Of a stretch of 64,000 nt of DNA, positions 40,371 through 50,506 are shown in pieces. Every line of letters starts with the position of its first letter. Position 1 is the stretch's first letter. A model generated the notes under the pieces. The model was not told where the DNA came from. It saw only the letters and a program-made list of their open reading frames with translations, and did no database searches. The stretch comes from a phage. Location: assembly GCA_026209155.1 (NCBI GenBank), contig GCA_026209155.1_3056.1. One strand, 5' to 3'. Made by a program: the position numbers and the translations under genes.

Positions 40371-41197
40371 AATAATATCCAATTTTTCCAAGCTTCATCA
40401 GTAGAATTACAGCGTTTTAGTATAAGATGTCTAGAAACTTTTATGGAATTTGAGCACTTTTTAATTGAATCATATTTAATACCGTCAACTGAAACGGTTT
40501 TGCTAGTTGGAGAAATTTTTCCATACATTGGATTTTTTGAACCAACTTGAAGTCCTTTTAAAGCTTTTGAAAGCTTTTGTCTAGATTCCAATGACATGGG
40601 AGAATTCTTTTTACCTTCAATAATTCGCTTGCGATGAAGTTCGCGTTCTTCTTCACTCAAAGAATTGTAATATTTTTTAACACCGTTTGATATAGATAAT
40701 TTATCTTTCTCAGACCGCTCTCCAGCTAATTTACTTCTAACATCTTTTCGCTTCATAGCTATGCTTACGGCTTTATTTAAATTTGCTTGATGCTCTGGCG
40801 TACGTTTATATTTCTTTAAAGCACGTGAAATAGCTATTTTAGTTTCTTCTGTTCTCTTTTTACCTTTATTTGCTAAACTATTTTTGTGGCGATGTTCAAG
40901 TGTCTGTTCATAGGCAGTTCCACCTTTTCCACCAGGTTTAATATTATATGTATTTTCTTTTAGACAATACTCTTCAGTTACAAGTTCAGCTTCTTTATCA
41001 TACATTTGCTTTTCATTATCAAAAACATATAAAATTTCTTTATAAAAATTTTTTATACCATATTTTAATAAAGCAGCACGAATCAATGTTCCTGATCCCA
41101 TATAACCGTCATTTATATTATCGGTGCTATGCGCACCGATATATTCCTTTGAATTAATTATATTTGTTATTTTATAAATTATATAATACCTATGCAT
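40367..41197 (-). CDS. free-standing GIY-YIG homing endonuclease (Seg-like)
   Basis: 276-aa ORF; N-terminal YYIIYKITNIINSKEYIGAHS motif; NUMOD3-like repeats (KGKKRTEETKIAISRALK, SPMSLESRQKLSKALKG); wedged between nrdD and nrdG with 4-8 nt overlaps. Confidence 0.7.
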   Translation of the reverse strand: MHRYYIIYKITNIINSKEYIGAHSTDNINDGYMGSGTLIRAALLKYGIKNFYKEILYVFDNEKQMYDKEAELVTEEYCLKENTYNIKPGGKGGTAYEQTLEHRHKNSLANKGKKRTEETKIAISRALKKYKRTPEHQANLNKAVSIAMKRKDVRSKLAGERSEKDKLSISNGVKKYYNSLSEEERELHRKRIIEGKKNSPMSLESRQKLSKALKGLQVGSKNPMYGKISPTSKTVSVDGIKYDSIKKCSNSIKVSRHLILKRCNSTDEAWKNWILL

Positions 41198-43007
41198 GTT
41201 TTACTCGTTTTACCATTTCTTTCATTTTACCTAAATTCCATGGAACAACGCTAGGAGTTCCAAGATATCCGCATGTTCTTCTTATTGTGTTCATCTTTTT
41301 AGGATCAGTTTCTCCACAAATAGAACAAACAAATCCGTTTTCAGTAGGAGTCATTTCATGGGTACTTCCACATGTAAAACATTTATCTACTGGCATATTA
41401 ACACCAAAATAATCTAAATGTTGTGCAGCATAATCCCATACAGCCTCAAGACCTTTTAAGTTATTTTTCATATCAGGAAGTTCAACATAAGAAATGTGGC
41501 CGCCTGTCGCAATGAAATGATATGGTGCTTCGCGAGAAATCTTTTCAAACGGAGTAATATTTTCTTCTACTGAAACATGGAAACTGTTAGTGTACCAACC
41601 TTTATCGGTAACATCCTTTACACTTCCATATTTTTCGGTATCAAGTTTACAGAAGCGATAACAAAGGTTTTCAGCAGGAGTAGAATACAAGCTAAAAGCA
41701 AAACCAGTTCTTTCAGTCCACTGCTTAAGACGAGCATTCATTTTAGTTAAAATTTCTTGTCCAATATCACGACCGACAAGAATATTCAATTCGTGAATAC
41801 CAATGTATCCTAAGGACACTGAACTTCTACCGTTTTTAAATAACTCAATTATATCATCATCAGGTTTAAGACGAACCCCGAATGCACCTTCTTGGTAAAG
41901 AATAGGAGCAACAGTCGCTTTAACTCCTTTTAAGGAACTAATTCTACACATCAAAGCTTCAAAACACAGATCCATTCGTTCATTAAATAGCTCAACAAAT
42001 TTCTGCTCATTGAATTGAGTTCCAATATAAGAATCTAATGCAATACGAGGAAGATTCAGTGTTACAACGCCAAGATTATTACGTCCATCAAGAATTTCAT
42101 TACCAGTCGAATCTTTCCATACGCTCAAGAAACTGCGGCAACCCATTGGAGAAACAGGAATAGATGAACCTGTGATAGCTTTATTGTTCTTAGCCGAAAT
42201 GATGTCAGGATACATTCTTTTACTTGCACATTCTAGAGCAAGCTGCTTAATATCATAGTTCGGATCGTCTTTATAAAGATTAACACCTTCTTCAACGAAC
42301 ATAACAAGTTTAGGGAAAATAGGAGTTATCCCATCGCGACCAAGACCTTTGATACGATTTTTCAGAATTGCTTTCTGAATCATTCGTTCAGTCCAGTCAG
42401 TTCCCGTACCAAATGTAATTGTTACAAAAGGCGTTTGTCCGTTTGAACTAAAGAGAGTATTTACTTCATATTCATAAGCTTGGAATGCATCGTATACGTC
42501 TTTTTCTGTTTTAGATTGGGCATAATTCAACGCATCAGCGATTTGCCATTTTTCTGCATCCTCAATATGTTTTGCATAGGTGCGTTTAACATAAGGAGAA
42601 AGTACTTTATCTACATTCGCAAAAGTCGTTCCGCCATATTGGTGGGAAGCAACCTGTGCAGTAATTTGTGCCATAATTGCAGTAGCAACGCCGATTGATT
42701 TAGGAGTTTCAATCTGTGCATTACCGAGCTTAAATCCGTTCTCAAGCATTCCTTTTAAATCTACTAAACAGCAATTAGTAAATGGAAGAGCAGGGGAATA
42801 ATCAATATCATGGAAATGAATAATTCCGCTTTCATGCGCTTTCATAATAAAAGACGGGACCATATTTTTGGCAATGTGTTTAGACACAATACCAGCCATA
42901 AGGTCCCGTTGAGTTGGAAAAACACGAGAATCTTTATTAGCATTCTCGTTCAAAAGGTCTTTATTAGTTTTATGAATCAATCCTTCAATTTCTTTTTCAA
43001 TTGTCAT
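41190..43007 (-). CDS. nrdD: anaerobic ribonucleoside-triphosphate reductase (uninterrupted)
   Basis: 605-aa continuous ORF with C-terminal glycyl-radical motif RRTCGYLG and CxxC zinc site. Confidence 0.9.
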   Translation of the reverse strand: MTIEKEIEGLIHKTNKDLLNENANKDSRVFPTQRDLMAGIVSKHIAKNMVPSFIMKAHESGIIHFHDIDYSPALPFTNCCLVDLKGMLENGFKLGNAQIETPKSIGVATAIMAQITAQVASHQYGGTTFANVDKVLSPYVKRTYAKHIEDAEKWQIADALNYAQSKTEKDVYDAFQAYEYEVNTLFSSNGQTPFVTITFGTGTDWTERMIQKAILKNRIKGLGRDGITPIFPKLVMFVEEGVNLYKDDPNYDIKQLALECASKRMYPDIISAKNNKAITGSSIPVSPMGCRSFLSVWKDSTGNEILDGRNNLGVVTLNLPRIALDSYIGTQFNEQKFVELFNERMDLCFEALMCRISSLKGVKATVAPILYQEGAFGVRLKPDDDIIELFKNGRSSVSLGYIGIHELNILVGRDIGQEILTKMNARLKQWTERTGFAFSLYSTPAENLCYRFCKLDTEKYGSVKDVTDKGWYTNSFHVSVEENITPFEKISREAPYHFIATGGHISYVELPDMKNNLKGLEAVWDYAAQHLDYFGVNMPVDKCFTCGSTHEMTPTENGFVCSICGETDPKKMNTIRRTCGYLGTPSVVPWNLGKMKEMVKRVKHA

Positions 43008-45159: not shown

Positions 45160-45549
45160 TTAATCCAAAATATTATTAGGCATTGGTTGAACACTCACAA
45201 GTTCTTTAAAGAACTCAGTAGAGTCAGGCAATTTAACCATTTCCGGAGCATGCTTACTGAATTTATGTTTACATTGACGGCATTTATATTCAAGCTCTGG
45301 TTTACGCCAGTTAATCAATTGAACTTGTTCAGTACCGCATTCAGGGCAATTAGGAACGTTTTTAGAAGCTCTTTCACGTCGTTCAACCATAGCCATAATA
45401 GCATCCCATGCTGGAGGTTTAAAATCTAAATCGTCGCAGCCGTGAATCTTTCCACGCATTTCCATATCATCTTCCTCACCAGCCATAATAATTTTAATTA
45501 AACTGGAATTACTTGAAGCTGCAATGTCTTCTAATAAACGCTTTTTCAT
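45160..45549 (-). CDS. hypothetical protein with zinc-ribbon-like Cys pairs
   Basis: 129-aa ORF; CPECGTE...CRQCKH. Confidence 0.4.
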
Positions 45550-46472
45550 TTCAATACCTCAATAGCATTACGTAAACCATTTGCTTTGGCGGTTAAAGCC
45601 TTAAGAACTTTAGTATGCTCTTCAATCTGTTTTTCAACTTCAATCAAACGGGCACTGAGATATTCGCGTTCTTCTTTCATAGTATCATTTCCATGATTGG
45701 ATTTTGGTGTAGGTTTAAATTCACTAGGGTCCTTTAATTTAATAACAAATTTAGTTTCAAACAGCGAAAGACCATAATTCGTATTATCATCAAAGGATTT
45801 GACTACATCCATATCAGATAATAACACGCGTAAATTATAAGCCAAAGAACTAATAGTTTCATTGTGTTTATTAGCTTCGCGTGGTTTCATATACGGAAGA
45901 TTTTTATATATCTCGTGCGGAGCACAAATGATAATTGACAATTCAAATTGCCCATTCTGGGACGATGGAGTGAATTTAGCCGTAACCCAGTCTTTTACAT
46001 TCACATTAATAGTACGGTTATCACCATGACAAAACAGTCTACGAGAATGCTTAAAAAGCATATTCACGTTATTATTGAATTCGTGTGAAAATTCACTAGC
46101 AAATTTTTCTTTACTATCTTTAGAAAACCATTCTTCTAAATAAGTTCTTTTCACGTCGTTAATAATATTAAATGTAACAACACTAGCATTTGATACATTA
46201 GTCTCAATGTAGCTTGAATACATAAATTTTTTAACATTATTAACAGCTATCACAGAAGATAGTAATCGGGAACGTTTGAACCACTCGAGCAAAGAACCAA
46301 GAGAATGTGAATACGCATTTTGTGTATCTTTACAAATATGGTTTTCCCATCCAATATAGTCTAAAAAATCACGAAGAATATTATTGATTACTGCTCTGTG
46401 TCCTATCTGATAATTACGATGTTTAGTAATAAGACTGTCAAAATAATCAATATAATGTTTACGAGTTTTCAT
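45546..46472 (-). CDS. coiled-coil paralog family member A
   Basis: 308-aa ORF, N-terminus MKTRKHY, C-terminal heptad helix [42 protein letters not shown]. Confidence 0.5.
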   Translation of the reverse strand: MKTRKHYIDYFDSLITKHRNYQIGHRAVINNILRDFLDYIGWENHICKDTQNAYSHSLGSLLEWFKRSRLLSSVIAVNNVKKFMYSSYIETNVSNASVVTFNIINDVKRTYLEEWFSKDSKEKFASEFSHEFNNNVNMLFKHSRRLFCHGDNRTINVNVKDWVTAKFTPSSQNGQFELSIIICAPHEIYKNLPYMKPREANKHNETISSLAYNLRVLLSDMDVVKSFDDNTNYGLSLFETKFVIKLKDPSEFKPTPKSNHGNDTMKEEREYLSARLIEVEKQIEEHTKVLKALTAKANGLRNAIEVLK

Positions 46473-46524
46473 GTTCTTCTCACTTGGTTAATGATTTATA
46501 CTCCGAGCCATCCTTGGCTTTAAA

Positions 46525-47526
46525 TTACTTAATTAACTGTAAAGCTTGTTCCAGACGATCAAGACGATTAACAGATTCTTCCCAAATCCTTTTAGCCTGC
46601 TCATATTCTTTCTGCGCTTTATTAGAAATTTCTAGAACTTCTTTATAAGCTTTTTCTAGTGCAATAACTTCTGGACGAATTTCTATCGGTTCAGGTGAAT
46701 CATCAAGACATTCCATTAGTTCCTCAAGGGTAGTTTCTTCTTTAGGAGTATTCACAATTTCATCACATTTTTGTTGGTAAATTTCTTTATCAGTAGGTGA
46801 ATAAGCACATTTCACTTCACGAAGGCTAATTACGAGTTTATATCCTTCCCAACCGCATATATTCTTAAAAGGATATGTATGAATATTTTCTACTGTTTCC
46901 ATACAAAGTAATGCGGTCTCTAATTGACGAGTTATAGTGCTAGCAATTGAGAAAAATTTATTAATATTCTTTTGGTTAGTTTCTGGTGTAAAAAATCCAT
47001 AATTCACAAAAATAGATACTTTATTTTTATCAAGTTCATATTCTTTTATGATAATCATATCAGAAGCCAAAGGATGAATTTGACGATAATCGCCATAACA
47101 TAATTTAGAAGCTGATTTTAGAATTTGTTTCTTAAAAAGTCTGAAATTACTGATCCAACGACGAGTAAAAATATTCTCAGGGTCTTCTTTAATATTAAGA
47201 TGATAAGAATTAACATCACCGAACCAATTGTATCCTACTACATCTTTAGTTCGTTTAATTTCTTTCCCAAAATTACCAAGAATATCCCGATTAACCAAAT
47301 ATGAAAGAAGACGAGACTCTTTAAAGGTTTTCTTGATAACATCTTTATCTACACGGCTAGAAATTTTACGAATTTCATGAATAAATTTAGTAGAAGAAAC
47401 AATACTTGCATCAACACTATTGAGCCATTGATTGATAATAGAAAGAACGCTATTTTGGCCAAACATCGGTATAGCTTTATCATCAATAACGCTATTGAAT
47501 GATTTGATATATTCGTTACGAGTCAT
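46525..47526 (-). CDS. coiled-coil paralog family member B
   Basis: ATG at 47524-47526 with GAGGAG RBS gives MTRNEYIKSF... (333 aa); C-terminal EYEQAKRIWEESVNRLDRLEQALQLIK. Confidence 0.5.
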   Translation of the reverse strand: MTRNEYIKSFNSVIDDKAIPMFGQNSVLSIINQWLNSVDASIVSSTKFIHEIRKISSRVDKDVIKKTFKESRLLSYLVNRDILGNFGKEIKRTKDVVGYNWFGDVNSYHLNIKEDPENIFTRRWISNFRLFKKQILKSASKLCYGDYRQIHPLASDMIIIKEYELDKNKVSIFVNYGFFTPETNQKNINKFFSIASTITRQLETALLCMETVENIHTYPFKNICGWEGYKLVISLREVKCAYSPTDKEIYQQKCDEIVNTPKEETTLEELMECLDDSPEPIEIRPEVIALEKAYKEVLEISNKAQKEYEQAKRIWEESVNRLDRLEQALQLIK

Positions 47527-47552
47527 AATAATCTCCTCAGTAGAAAGTAAAA

Positions 47553-47586
47553 ACATTATACCACATCCTTGTGGCAAAGTAAACTA
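47553..47586 (-). promoter_or_regulatory. T4-type early promoter, near-identical copy of the rIIA.1 promoter cassette
   Basis: Plus attataccacatccttgtggcaaagtaaac (47555-47584) versus attataccacatccttgtggtaaagtaaac at 2714-2743. Confidence 0.55.
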
Positions 47587-48612
47587 GTTCAGTGCATTTA
47601 GTGCATTGTTCAGTTTAGAACGTTGCTTTGTCAGATTTTGAACCCTTGACTGAGCTTGTTCTAACGCCTTTTCAGCTTCTAGCACTTCATTGGTCGCTTT
47701 AACGAGTTCATCATCTACTGCCTTAAGAGACTTCTCAATCGCGTCAGCGTGCCATTTTTCTACAGGTTTAAAATTTGAATTTTCAGTAGGAAGAAAACTC
47801 ACTTTATTAAGTTTACATGCATCTATATTGCTTGAGCTATACATCCAAAATTTAGGATCGTTTGATAAGTAATTGGATAAATTTAAATTTAAGGTATCTT
47901 GCACTTCCTGCTTTTTCTCTTGAACAATTTCATCCTTTCTCAAAAATTCATATTTAAATGAAACGATCATATCAAGTTCATATGTTGTTGTATGTTCCCA
48001 ATTTCGCTCAAAACGAGGTAAAATCTTAGATTGAACAGCAGCAACAACATCCATATACTTAAATGCTTCTGTCAGCTGTGATTTAAGACATTCACAAATT
48101 GAAAGAGAATTTTTAGTATTAGGCTTAAAGCTAATTCGTGCAGTTCTATTATTTTCTTTTAACGGTCTTACTTCCATCTGAAGAGTATAACCATCAAATT
48201 TCAGGTTCTTTAAGTTAATATCAGAGCCTTTTAATCGACTAGCAGTAGACAAAATTTGCTTTAATTGTTTACGGAATAGAGCAATAAATCTCCATTCAAT
48301 ACGATAATGATTTGGATTGAAAAATCCAGATGATAAATCGACCTTACTTTGACCAACGCCTTGAACAATCAAAGGATTTTTATAATCAATAGTTTTACAG
48401 AAATCGGTGAGCTGTTCACGAGCAGTCATTTGTGTAATATACCCTGCTTTACTAAAATTACGCACCCATTCACTGCTATTCGTATACTTAAAGTGATGAA
48501 TAACACGATTAACTTTATCAGGGTCTAAATTATTTTCACACAAAAATGTCATAACATCACGAGTATAGCTGGCATTACGAACCATATCTTCAATTTGAGA
48601 ACGAGTTTTCAT
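47584..48612 (-). CDS. coiled-coil paralog family member C
   Basis: 342-aa ORF, N-terminus MKTRSQIEDM, C-terminal EAEKALEQAQSRVQNLTKQRSKLNNALNALN. Confidence 0.5.
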   Translation of the reverse strand: MKTRSQIEDMVRNASYTRDVMTFLCENNLDPDKVNRVIHHFKYTNSSEWVRNFSKAGYITQMTAREQLTDFCKTIDYKNPLIVQGVGQSKVDLSSGFFNPNHYRIEWRFIALFRKQLKQILSTASRLKGSDINLKNLKFDGYTLQMEVRPLKENNRTARISFKPNTKNSLSICECLKSQLTEAFKYMDVVAAVQSKILPRFERNWEHTTTYELDMIVSFKYEFLRKDEIVQEKKQEVQDTLNLNLSNYLSNDPKFWMYSSSNIDACKLNKVSFLPTENSNFKPVEKWHADAIEKSLKAVDDELVKATNEVLEAEKALEQAQSRVQNLTKQRSKLNNALNALN

Positions 48613-48620
48613 GGTGTTCC

Positions 48621-49508
48621 TTAAGATTTAAGTAAATCAACGATTTTAATTAATTTTTCACGCTCAGATTTAGCTTTACTACTCAATCCAGATAGTCTGA
48701 AAATTTCATCATCATATTGCTGAATAGAAATATTTAGCTCTTCAATCTGCTTATTAAAATAAGCAATTTGTTCAGAATGTTTTTCATTACTGCGAACTGG
48801 TACAGGTTTTGTAGGTAATTTAGTTGAACTGGATTCATCTGGGCGATAAATTAAAATGCAATTTGAACCAATCGGACATTTAGCACCAGACACATATTCT
48901 AATGTTCCGGCTTCTTTTAAAACTTCAAAAGCTAAACAGAGATGATGCCCCATATTAACATAATCTGTAGAGCGAGCTCTGATGTAATAATCATCTCCAC
49001 GAGTACTAAATTTAAAGCATTTAAGGTCTTCTGTATTATTGGTCTTAAAAATCATTTGTTTATCTAGACCTTTAGCTAATCGAGCGCCTAATGCTAATAA
49101 TCGTCGTTGATTTTCCCACAAATCCGCAATCATTTGGTCAAATGATAATTTCGGCATTAGTCGACCATAAAGGTCATATCCTTTATTATAATTGCGAAGG
49201 ATTTCACTCGCATTAATACGAGACAACGCTCCAATTTTATTAAGGGCTTTCATGATGCGATTAGATAAACTCATTCCAGATCCGTTTGTTCGCTGTAAAT
49301 GTTTTTCTAATCCAAATCCAATATCAACTTTAAATTTATCTAAAATTTCAGCATGAACATCTCTGTCAATAACATTCAAATCCAAAGTTGGGTTAAATCT
49401 ATGAAAAAATTTATCTGGCTCTCCACGACGAAGTACAGTCCATTCATTCAATTTTTTATTAACTAAAGATTTAATTACTGTATTGACATTATTAATTACT
49501 ACTGACAT
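48621..49508 (-). CDS. coiled-coil paralog family member D
   Basis: ATG at 49506-49508 with GAGGAAA RBS gives MSVVINNVNT... (295 aa); C-terminal IEELNISIQQYDDEIFRL...EREKLIKIVDLLKS. Confidence 0.5.
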   Translation of the reverse strand: MSVVINNVNTVIKSLVNKKLNEWTVLRRGEPDKFFHRFNPTLDLNVIDRDVHAEILDKFKVDIGFGLEKHLQRTNGSGMSLSNRIMKALNKIGALSRINASEILRNYNKGYDLYGRLMPKLSFDQMIADLWENQRRLLALGARLAKGLDKQMIFKTNNTEDLKCFKFSTRGDDYYIRARSTDYVNMGHHLCLAFEVLKEAGTLEYVSGAKCPIGSNCILIYRPDESSSTKLPTKPVPVRSNEKHSEQIAYFNKQIEELNISIQQYDDEIFRLSGLSSKAKSEREKLIKIVDLLKS

Positions 49509-49978: not shown

Positions 49979-50506
49979 TTATGCGAGTACCGTCTTTAAC
50001 CGTTCTTCAAACTTCCGAAGAGTATTCTGGCGTTCAGCTCTTTGCTTTTTGTAAGTTTCAATACGCTCTGAAATGAGAGTGTATCGTTCATTTACTGATT
50101 CTTTCATAAAATCAGGAATTTCACGAGAAGCTTTAATCTCGTCAAATTTATCAATAACAGCTTGCTCTTCAGCAATTAAGTTATCATACATCAAAATATC
50201 TTTCTCGATGAACTCAATATCTTCTTGAGTTACACGAGATAATTTAGATGCTTTATCCTTTTTGTACTGTTCATTAGTATCACGAGACCAGTGTAATGTA
50301 CGATTTTTATTCGTATTCTTGTAAATTTCTACAATACCAATCTCATCGATAATAACGATCCAATTCCAACGGGATTTGTAAATTTGTCCTCCATCAACCG
50401 TGATTTCACCACCGATTGAGATGTCATTAAAGAACTTGCTTTGTGCTTCAGATTTAAATTTACCATCATTGTAGTTTACCAAGTTGAAAATATCTTTAGC
50501 ATTCAT
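49979..50506 (-). CDS. hypothetical protein with C-terminal coiled coil
   Basis: 175-aa ORF directly downstream of an early promoter. Confidence 0.45.
   Translation of the reverse strand: MNAKDIFNLVNYNDGKFKSEAQSKFFNDISIGGEITVDGGQIYKSRWNWIVIIDEIGIVEIYKNTNKNRTLHWSRDTNEQYKKDKASKLSRVTQEDIEFIEKDILMYDNLIAEEQAVIDKFDEIKASREIPDFMKESVNERYTLISERIETYKKQRAERQNTLRKFEERLKTVLA

Follow-up and report, generated by a model that had tools for sequence, protein, structure and literature searches.

Four neighbouring genes, nrdC.3 to nrdC.6, of a Tequatrovirus genome as candidate antagonists of host anti-phage defence

Known anti-defence genes and the nrdC.3-nrdC.6 locus

The best-described relative of the genes considered here is nrdC.5 of bacteriophage T4, called an early gene in the study that gave it a phenotype (Srikant, Guegler and Laub, eLife 2022, PMC9391042). 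In that work an evolved T4 clone lacking nrdC.5 did not plate on Escherichia coli ECOR17 or on MG1655 carrying dsr1, a SIR2-type defence gene, and plasmid-borne T4 nrdC.5 restored plating of the deletion clone on dsr1+ E. coli; the published result is a genetic phenotype only. According to a 2026 preprint (PMC12803255), a phage major capsid protein acts as the trigger that the TPR sensor of E. coli Dsr1 detects. Inhibitors of other defence systems are encoded by close neighbours of nrdC.5, namely gp49.2, which inhibits OLD (PMC13096335), and nrdC.1, which inhibits Septu (preprint 10.1101/2025.11.20.689424). This study concerns the corresponding genes, nrdC.3, nrdC.4, nrdC.5 and nrdC.6, in a 64,000-nt stretch of phage DNA (GenBank assembly GCA_026209155.1, contig GCA_026209155.1_3056.1), referred to below as the window.

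The array is interpreted, with a probability slightly above one half (about 0.55), as an old tandem set of four divergent homologues that are dispensable, early, non-enzymatic antagonists of host anti-phage defence proteins. No more than about 2 kb separates the array from either gp49.2 or nrdC.1, and given the published anti-defence action of nrdC.5, gp49.2 and nrdC.1, the array therefore sits in a demonstrated anti-defence island.

The window was assigned to Tequatrovirus, and the four genes are themselves the already known T4 nrdC.3-nrdC.6. The 3,963-base array stretch matched 507 phage records, with 99.8% identity to Escherichia phage vB_EcoM_G29 and 97% to RB32, in which the counterpart stretch is annotated as nrdC.2 to nrdC.6. 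As an earlier note on this sequence had described, the genes are four consecutive minus-strand open reading frames (ORFs) of 308, 333, 342 and 295 amino acids (aa), and both their coordinates and their ATG starts were borne out; each start is preceded by a Shine-Dalgarno-like purine run. The genes are co-oriented, separated by gaps of 8-57 nt, and arranged in the same order as in T4. The 342-aa ORF is 93.9% identical to T4 NrdC.5 over 342 aa, is flanked by nrdC.4 and nrdC.6 as in T4, and matches the Pfam family DUF7235 (PF23882) with 405.6 bits (cut-off 30) over model positions 1-307 of 307. The Dsr1 phenotype was published for the T4 nrdC.5 allele alone, from which the window allele differs at about 6% of residues.

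None of the other three ORFs matched DUF7235, nrdC.3 reaching merely an E-value of 0.25 on its coiled coil. The PHROG 1435 profile is covered whole by both nrdC.3 and nrdC.4, which PHROGs groups as one family, while nrdC.6 is placed in a separate family by PHROGs and Pfam. The Pfam scan of nrdC.4 and nrdC.6 gave no match to PF26897 (the nrdC.4 family) or PF26899 (the nrdC.6 family); cluster representatives 88-99% identical to the two proteins bear these labels as precomputed annotations. The earlier note could not assign these proteins to a characterised family, and this is now superseded, since one falls in DUF7235 and has a published phenotype, and the others fall in PHROGs 1435 and 2257. 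In GenBank, many phage records name nrdC.3-nrdC.6 homologues 'thioredoxin', and a thioredoxin domain was found in none of them. This widespread mis-annotation, corrected here, was evidently propagated from the locus name nrdC.x.

Relationships among the four proteins and their predicted architecture

To examine the relationships within the array, family alignments were built from related loci and three database searches, which yielded 63, 57 and 105 clusters; every one came from T4-like phages that infect enterobacteria. The array members are only 10-25% identical to each other, and raw pairwise BLASTP reached significance only for nrdC.3 and nrdC.4, weakly (E 0.002). Profile-profile comparison with hhalign gave probabilities of 98% for nrdC.3-nrdC.4 (E 1.6e-13), 84-90% for nrdC.4-nrdC.5 (E 7e-6 to 1.4e-6) and 80-84% for nrdC.3-nrdC.5, and reversed-profile controls were all below 1%. 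After removal of the coiled coil, nrdC.3-nrdC.4 remained at 98% (E 2.7e-14) and nrdC.4-nrdC.5 at 75%; overall, the latter pair scored 75-90% outside the coiled coil (E 2.5e-5 to 1.9e-6), and the core region alone gave 96% and 90%, respectively. The nrdC.3-nrdC.5 match became weak without the coiled coil (19-20%), and the coiled-coil segments of the four proteins show no specific mutual similarity. The alignments of nrdC.3, nrdC.4 and nrdC.5 are collinear, with the central motif in the same columns, and their families have in common an N-terminal K/M-T-R-x-E/H-Y motif across several genera. A hidden Markov model (HMM) of nrdC.4, searched against a library of 1.84 billion representative proteins, retrieved nrdC.3 (P0230) at E 7.4e-7; its seven matches were all from phages and included no cellular relatives and no nrdC.5 or nrdC.6. 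These profile comparisons show that nrdC.3, nrdC.4 and nrdC.5 are homologous.

The earlier proposal of four paralogues with an MKTR/MTRN-type N-terminus thus stands for three of them, the profile comparison having found similarity within the array. It does not extend to nrdC.6 by sequence: this protein starts with MSVVIN or MSQAIN, and against each single family its hhalign probability was below 5%, at the level of noise and controls. Against a merged nrdC.3/.4/.5 profile it gave P 1.1e-3, compared with 0.36 for the reversed control, a value that is not significant alone; the alignment spans two helix pairs and includes the central motif.

The case for nrdC.6 was examined further at the level of predicted structure. 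AlphaFold2 (AF2) models of nrdC.4 and nrdC.6 (predicted local distance difference test scores of 83.4 and 78.1) run through the same elements in the same order, from an N-terminal helical bundle and the helix pair to a beta hairpin, a long helix and another beta hairpin, followed by a linker of low confidence and a terminal helix. In Foldseek searches of BFVD, both models matched proteins of IME523, PM2, fHyAci03, Acj9, fHe-Yen9-01, CBH8 and Mineola, nearly full-length (E 1e-7 to 1.2e-3; 311-386 alignment columns); these seven shared targets are uncharacterised 300-375-aa proteins from distant T4-like phages (Straboviridae). In Acinetobacter phage Acj61, the match of the nrdC.4 model and that of the nrdC.6 model are adjacent genes, p120 and p121, located between nrdC and nrdC.10. 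In Klebsiella phage Mineola, the shared target Mineola_080 directly follows an nrdC.2-like gene and has an hhalign probability of 89% to the nrdC.5 family, the only significant result when single Acj61 and Mineola proteins were compared with the four families; the Acj61 proteins are related to these families by modelled structure only. On the basis of the structural models, the shared BFVD targets and synteny, nrdC.6 is accepted as the probable fourth member.

If nrdC.6 were instead unrelated, it would have converged on the combination of a helical domain, an alpha/beta domain and a coiled coil, and the array would comprise three paralogues. In favour of this are the control-level hhalign scores against single families, the separate family in PHROGs and Pfam, and the lack of a K/M-T-R N-terminus. 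Convergence nevertheless appears unlikely, because the element order is the same, the position of the motif helix pair agrees with that in nrdC.4 to within 2-4 residues, the full-length Foldseek targets are common to both proteins, the merged-profile alignment pairs structurally equivalent helices, and the Acj61 genes matched by the two models are neighbours.

A scan of all window ORFs of at least 80 aa with HMMs found no more paralogues. The 175-aa product of nrdC.8 (window positions 49979-50506), tried as a fifth, shorter member, was rejected at an hhalign probability below 1%; its C-terminal end is a long helical, heptad-like segment. A protein of Klebsiella phage KPV15, likewise of 175 aa, was a weak Foldseek match of both models (E 9e-3 and 0.39).

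The features of the four proteins are collected in Table 1. The central basic motif noted earlier is present at the expected positions in all four and aligns significantly in nrdC.3, nrdC.4 and nrdC.5, while the alignment of nrdC.6 to the others is weak at the sequence level. In the AF2 models the motif helix pair spans residues 119-142 of nrdC.4 and 123-144 of nrdC.6, so that the motif occupies the same position in both. Residues F128, I135, K137 and K141 of the nrdC.4 motif are invariant in its family, the nrdC.5 motif lies partly inside the segment of residues 120-180 that is invariant among 51 Tequatrovirus sequences, and the nrdC.6 motif belongs to the most conserved block of its family, N133 to N157. 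The heptad-like helix of about 40 residues described earlier at each C-terminus was borne out: the last approximately 42 residues of all four proteins have a hydrophobic heptad periodicity beyond that of shuffled sequences (p <= 0.0035), and both modelled proteins are predicted to end in long helices.

Table 1. Positions of the array genes and of their sequence features in the window
Feature	Position	Strand	Details
nrdC.3 orthologue (family member A)	45546..46472	-	308 aa; 92% identity to T4 NrdC.3; PHROG 1435, E 4.9e-100
nrdC.3 C-terminal heptad helix, aa 263-308	45549..45686	-	heptad p = 0.003 vs shuffles
nrdC.3 central motif NMLFKHSRRLF, aa 137-147	46032..46064	-	aligned by hhalign to the nrdC.4 and nrdC.5 motifs
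nrdC.4 orthologue (family member B)	46525..47526	-	333 aa; 99% identity to T4 NrdC.4; PHROG 1435, E 5.6e-168
nrdC.4 C-terminal heptad helix, aa 285-333	46528..46674	-	heptad p = 0.0025; continuous AF2 helix 285-332
nrdC.4 central motif FRLFKKQILKSASKL, aa 128-142	47101..47145	-	on AF2 helix pair 119-130 / 132-142
T4 early-promoter-like site upstream of nrdC.4	47555..47583	-	TTTACT, 17-nt spacer, TATAAT, preceded by TG
nrdC.5 orthologue (family member C)	47584..48612	-	342 aa; 94% identity to T4 NrdC.5; DUF7235, E 1.9e-121
nrdC.5 C-terminal heptad helix, aa 290-342	47587..47745	-	heptad p < 0.0005; hydrophobic a/d positions 92%
nrdC.5 central motif FIALFRKQLKQILSTASRL, aa 109-127	48232..48288	-	aligned to the nrdC.4 motif
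nrdC.6 orthologue (probable family member D, by predicted fold and synteny)	48621..49508	-	295 aa; 98% identity to T4 NrdC.6 over 258 aa; PHROG 2257
nrdC.6 C-terminal heptad helices, aa 245-295	48624..48776	-	heptad p = 0.0035; AF2 helices 245-271 and 277-294
nrdC.6 central motif LWENQRRLLALGARL, aa 130-144	49077..49121	-	on AF2 helix pair 123-132 / 134-144

The models of nrdC.4 and nrdC.6 predict a common architecture, and each of the four proteins would follow the same plan: an N-terminal helical bundle, a conserved helix pair bearing the basic motif, an alpha/beta domain with two beta hairpins around a long helix, a poorly ordered linker and, at the C-terminus, an amphipathic heptad helix some 45 residues long.

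Two natural variants of nrdC.6 were observed in this context. Compared with the window (48621-48700), the T4 reference sequence (L001, NC_000866, 12067-12140) has a 1-nt deletion, reading GAAGAGCT-GATATT where the window reads GAAGAGCTAAATATT. The deletion shifts the frame, and the annotated T4 protein of 275 aa therefore lacks the C-terminal coiled coil, which is still encoded in the downstream frame; the window copy is intact (295 aa). In the 378-aa NrdC.6 of Shigella phage Sf25 (P0121), an internal segment of about 83 residues is duplicated in tandem (IRAHSTDYVNMG...KQIEEL repeated); the duplication may be real or an artefact of assembly.

Variation of the array and its probable function

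The composition of the array varies between genera: Tequatrovirus has all four members, Mosigvirus lacks nrdC.4, nrdC.3 is missing from Dhakavirus and Gaprivervirus, and one or two relatives are present in Mineola and Acj61. Copy number therefore varies (1-2, 3 or 4 members), and the arrays of Mosig-, Dhaka- and Gaprivervirus occupy the same genomic place. The description of the family as locally amplified is not upheld in the sense of a recent event, given the low identity between members and the presence of related genes at this site in further genera of Tevenvirinae, as well as in an Acinetobacter phage from a different subfamily. Across genera the four array genes are 21-55% identical, as compared with 66-97% for the flanking genes (nrdD 97%, gp49 and nrdC 83-90%, nrdC.8 66-83%, nrdC.10 77-79%).

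Variation within Tequatrovirus is uneven. Three allelic clades of nrdC.3 were distinguished (about 92-100%, 60% and 55% identity), and the 60% allele occurs in genomes that are otherwise 92-99% identical. Among the 51 nrdC.5 sequences, variation is concentrated mainly in residues 20-60 and 180-280, while nrdC.6 is 95-99% identical, with a ratio of non-synonymous to synonymous substitution rates (dN/dS) of 0.06-0.20. For the array genes as a whole dN/dS is 0.06-0.34, against 0-0.15 for conserved flanking genes, and they are therefore functional and under purifying selection, although less constrained than their flanks.

Gene loss and rearrangement were also observed. In an IMG/VR Tequatrovirus genome (L010, 6971-7552), nrdC.4 is cut to 193 aa, of which the first 179 are 98% identical, and represents a natural gene loss. 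A 167-kb contig encodes a natural 299-aa chimera (P0119), in which the middle of nrdC.5, from MEVRPLKENN, is joined to the last two-thirds of an nrdC.3 of the 60% clade; the junction is a short NKV/NNV-N beside the central motif, nrdC.4 is deleted, and the arrangement demonstrates recombination or deletion between array members. Since nrdC.4 is truncated in one genome and deleted in another, it is dispensable in nature. An additional 71-aa ORF lies between the nrdC.6- and nrdC.5-like genes of Dhaka- and Gaprivervirus (L003, 5852-6067; L004, 6733-6948; L005, 7782-7997) and is absent from the window and T4.

The variable composition bears on a different explanation, in which the four proteins are subunits of a single hetero-oligomeric machine, joined by their C-terminal coiled coils and functional only together. 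It would account for the heptad helix of similar length that ends all four proteins and for the adjacent, co-oriented genes with their short gaps. Such a machine is very unlikely, because related phages hold three, two or one member in differing combinations, the T4 reference nrdC.6 lost its coiled coil by frameshift, and the coiled-coil segments have no specific similarity to each other; furthermore, plasmid-borne nrdC.5 alone rescued the deletion clone, although which paralogues that clone retained is not stated (PMC9391042).

A site resembling the T4 early promoter, recognised both by a scan and by direct reading, fits the consensus and falls within the 57 nt that separate nrdC.5 from nrdC.4. 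Since the promoter scan overall returned 27 sites against 25.3 expected from shuffles, which is no enrichment, this site is regarded as a consensus match only.

In agreement with the earlier observation that no catalytic motif is evident, searches of Pfam, NCBIfam and PADLOC identified no catalytic domain in the four proteins and, apart from DUF7235, returned only coiled-coil noise. Searches of PDB sequences with the nrdC.4 and nrdC.6 profiles and the nrdC.5 protein gave no real match and no solved relative. No housekeeping function is known for any of the four proteins, and a literature search for phenotypes of nrdC.3, nrdC.4 and nrdC.6 found none, with nrdC.4 mentioned in passing. The proposal that these are counter-defence proteins, made earlier from the pattern of the locus, thus holds for nrdC.5, the sole tested member (T4 allele against Dsr1), while nrdC.3, nrdC.4 and nrdC.6 are good candidates for similar anti-defence roles by inference.

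According to the reading of the array as a set of defence antagonists, the globular part of each protein would bind a host defence protein stoichiometrically, and NrdC.5 might bind Dsr1 directly and mask, for example, its TPR sensor or its SIR2 domain. The coiled coil would oligomerise the inhibitor and so provide avidity against oligomeric targets, and duplication followed by divergence would have produced members with different targets.

Several observations weigh against this reading. An experimental phenotype exists for one of the four genes only, with no published mechanism; dN/dS over whole genes lies well below 1, with no direct signature of positive selection in this gene-wide test; and the conserved basic helix pair might just as well serve to bind nucleic acid. 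As to the unity of the family, the sequence link of nrdC.6 to the other three is not significant alone, and the TM-scores to the shared BFVD targets are only 0.4-0.5, between structures that are predicted, none being solved.

In an alternative reading, nrdC.5 is the only immune antagonist and the other three genes have diverged to other early host-takeover roles, for example in binding nucleic acid of the host or housekeeping proteins by way of the basic helix pair. The literature search is compatible with such a division, the helix pair is the most conserved block in each family, lysine and arginine outnumber aspartate and glutamate in three of the four proteins, and the unusual conservation of nrdC.6 within Tequatrovirus is not what a typical arms-race gene would show. 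This alternative is tenable and, on balance, rather improbable: paralogues of an immune antagonist that lie amid at least three published inhibitors are most simply further antagonists, alleles and copy number differ between close phages, and nrdC.4 is naturally dispensable.

Two neighbouring genes of the window also differ from T4. The product of nrdC.2 (45160-45549) has 129 aa, as against 104 aa in T4, with 78% identity over 78% of the length; it is variable among close relatives and contains a CxxC...CxxC pattern (CPECG...CRQC) that suggests a zinc ribbon. The nrdD gene (41190-43007) is one unbroken ORF of 605 aa, while T4 nrdD is interrupted by a group I intron with I-TevII, and T4 has mobC between nrdG and nrdD; the window phage lacks at least the intron.

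Comparison with known systems

The four T4 genes and the anti-Dsr1 phenotype of nrdC.5 were known before. What is modestly new is the treatment of nrdC.3-nrdC.6 and their distant syntenic relatives as one probable scaffold family with a shared predicted plan, in which the core is conserved and the surfaces vary, together with the candidate status of three members, and a tail-terminator-like fold is a new lead. The three candidates are ready putative inhibitors for a target search in panels of defence systems. Natural variants offer a means of mapping specificity, in particular the three nrdC.3 clades, residues 180-280 of nrdC.5, and the T4 nrdC.6 without its coiled coil. As a structural hypothesis, a globular binder combined with an oligomerising helix is offered, possibly derived from a tail-terminator fold.

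The first system for comparison is T4 NrdC.5 itself. The 342-aa ORF is its orthologue and does not differ from it in kind, nrdC.3 and nrdC.4 are paralogues detectable by sequence, and nrdC.6 is a fold-level relative according to the models. Since identity within the array is only 10-25%, it is unlikely that nrdC.3, nrdC.4 and nrdC.6 share a target with NrdC.5.

DSAD1 of phage SPbeta is a non-enzymatic inhibitor of the SIR2 protein DSR2, an NADase that senses a virion protein, and by analogy NrdC.5 may act in a comparable manner; the comparison of the array proteins with DSAD1 found no sequence or structural relatedness. Another known way past SIR2 defences is the reconstitution of NAD+ by NARP1 and NARP2, whose enzymes are an ADP-ribose pyrophosphokinase with a nicotinamide ADP-ribose transferase, or Nampt with Nmnat. 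The scans of family libraries found no enzyme domain, and hence no NARP1 or NARP2 enzyme, among the four proteins. Acj61 encodes a nicotinamide phosphoribosyltransferase and a ribose-phosphate pyrophosphokinase (L020, 1229-3938) about 30 kb from its nrdC.4/nrdC.6-like pair, and these enzymes of NAD+ salvage and PRPP synthesis may be relevant to NAD+-depleting defences.

A third comparison is with tail terminators (lambda gpU, T5 p142, Mu, SPP1 gp17-like and DUF3168), to which a fold similarity was found. Judging from the order of secondary-structure elements in the models, this resemblance most likely corresponds to the central alpha/beta domain. Searches of Pfam, PHROG and NCBIfam gave no tail-terminator match, and hhalign against T4-type gp3 gave at most 0.5%. 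The array proteins differ from tail terminators, exemplified by lambda gpU, in adding the N-terminal helical bundle and the C-terminal coiled coil, and their genes, which are early and dispensable, lie apart from the structural modules. Because a sequence-level link is lacking and the genes are early and dispensable, the likeness is one of fold and not of family membership.

On another reading, the four proteins would be relatives of tail terminators with a part in the virion or its morphogenesis. Such a role is extremely improbable in view of the absence of sequence similarity to tail-terminator families or T4-type gp3, the two added domains, the consensus early-type promoter upstream of nrdC.4, and the location of the genes in the early nrdC-tk region, away from late structural modules. 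In addition, the T4 deletions reported previously, one of which removed nrdC.5, spared the genes essential for virion production (PMC9391042), and T4 remains viable with deletions that take in nrdC.5.

A speculative and improbable connection is that a virion fold was exapted: a duplicate of a tail-terminator-like alpha/beta domain would have entered the early region, gained a helical bundle and an oligomerising coiled coil by fusion, and diversified into multivalent decoys or clamps that act on host sensors of conserved phage structural proteins. If this were true, the first known target would be Dsr1, as a sensor of the major capsid protein, and each paralogue and allelic clade, such as the three clades of nrdC.3, would disarm a different sensor.

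Finally, the locus may be compared with the anti-defence islands of T-even phages, such as dmd-tifA-adfA, gp49.2 and nrdC.1. Like the genes of these islands, nrdC.3-nrdC.6 are early, dispensable and fast-diverging, clustered between conserved genes and variable in presence. Whereas the inhibitors of those islands are small, unrelated single genes, nrdC.3-nrdC.6 probably constitute a multi-copy family of multidomain proteins, 300-340 aa in length, built on a common predicted scaffold.

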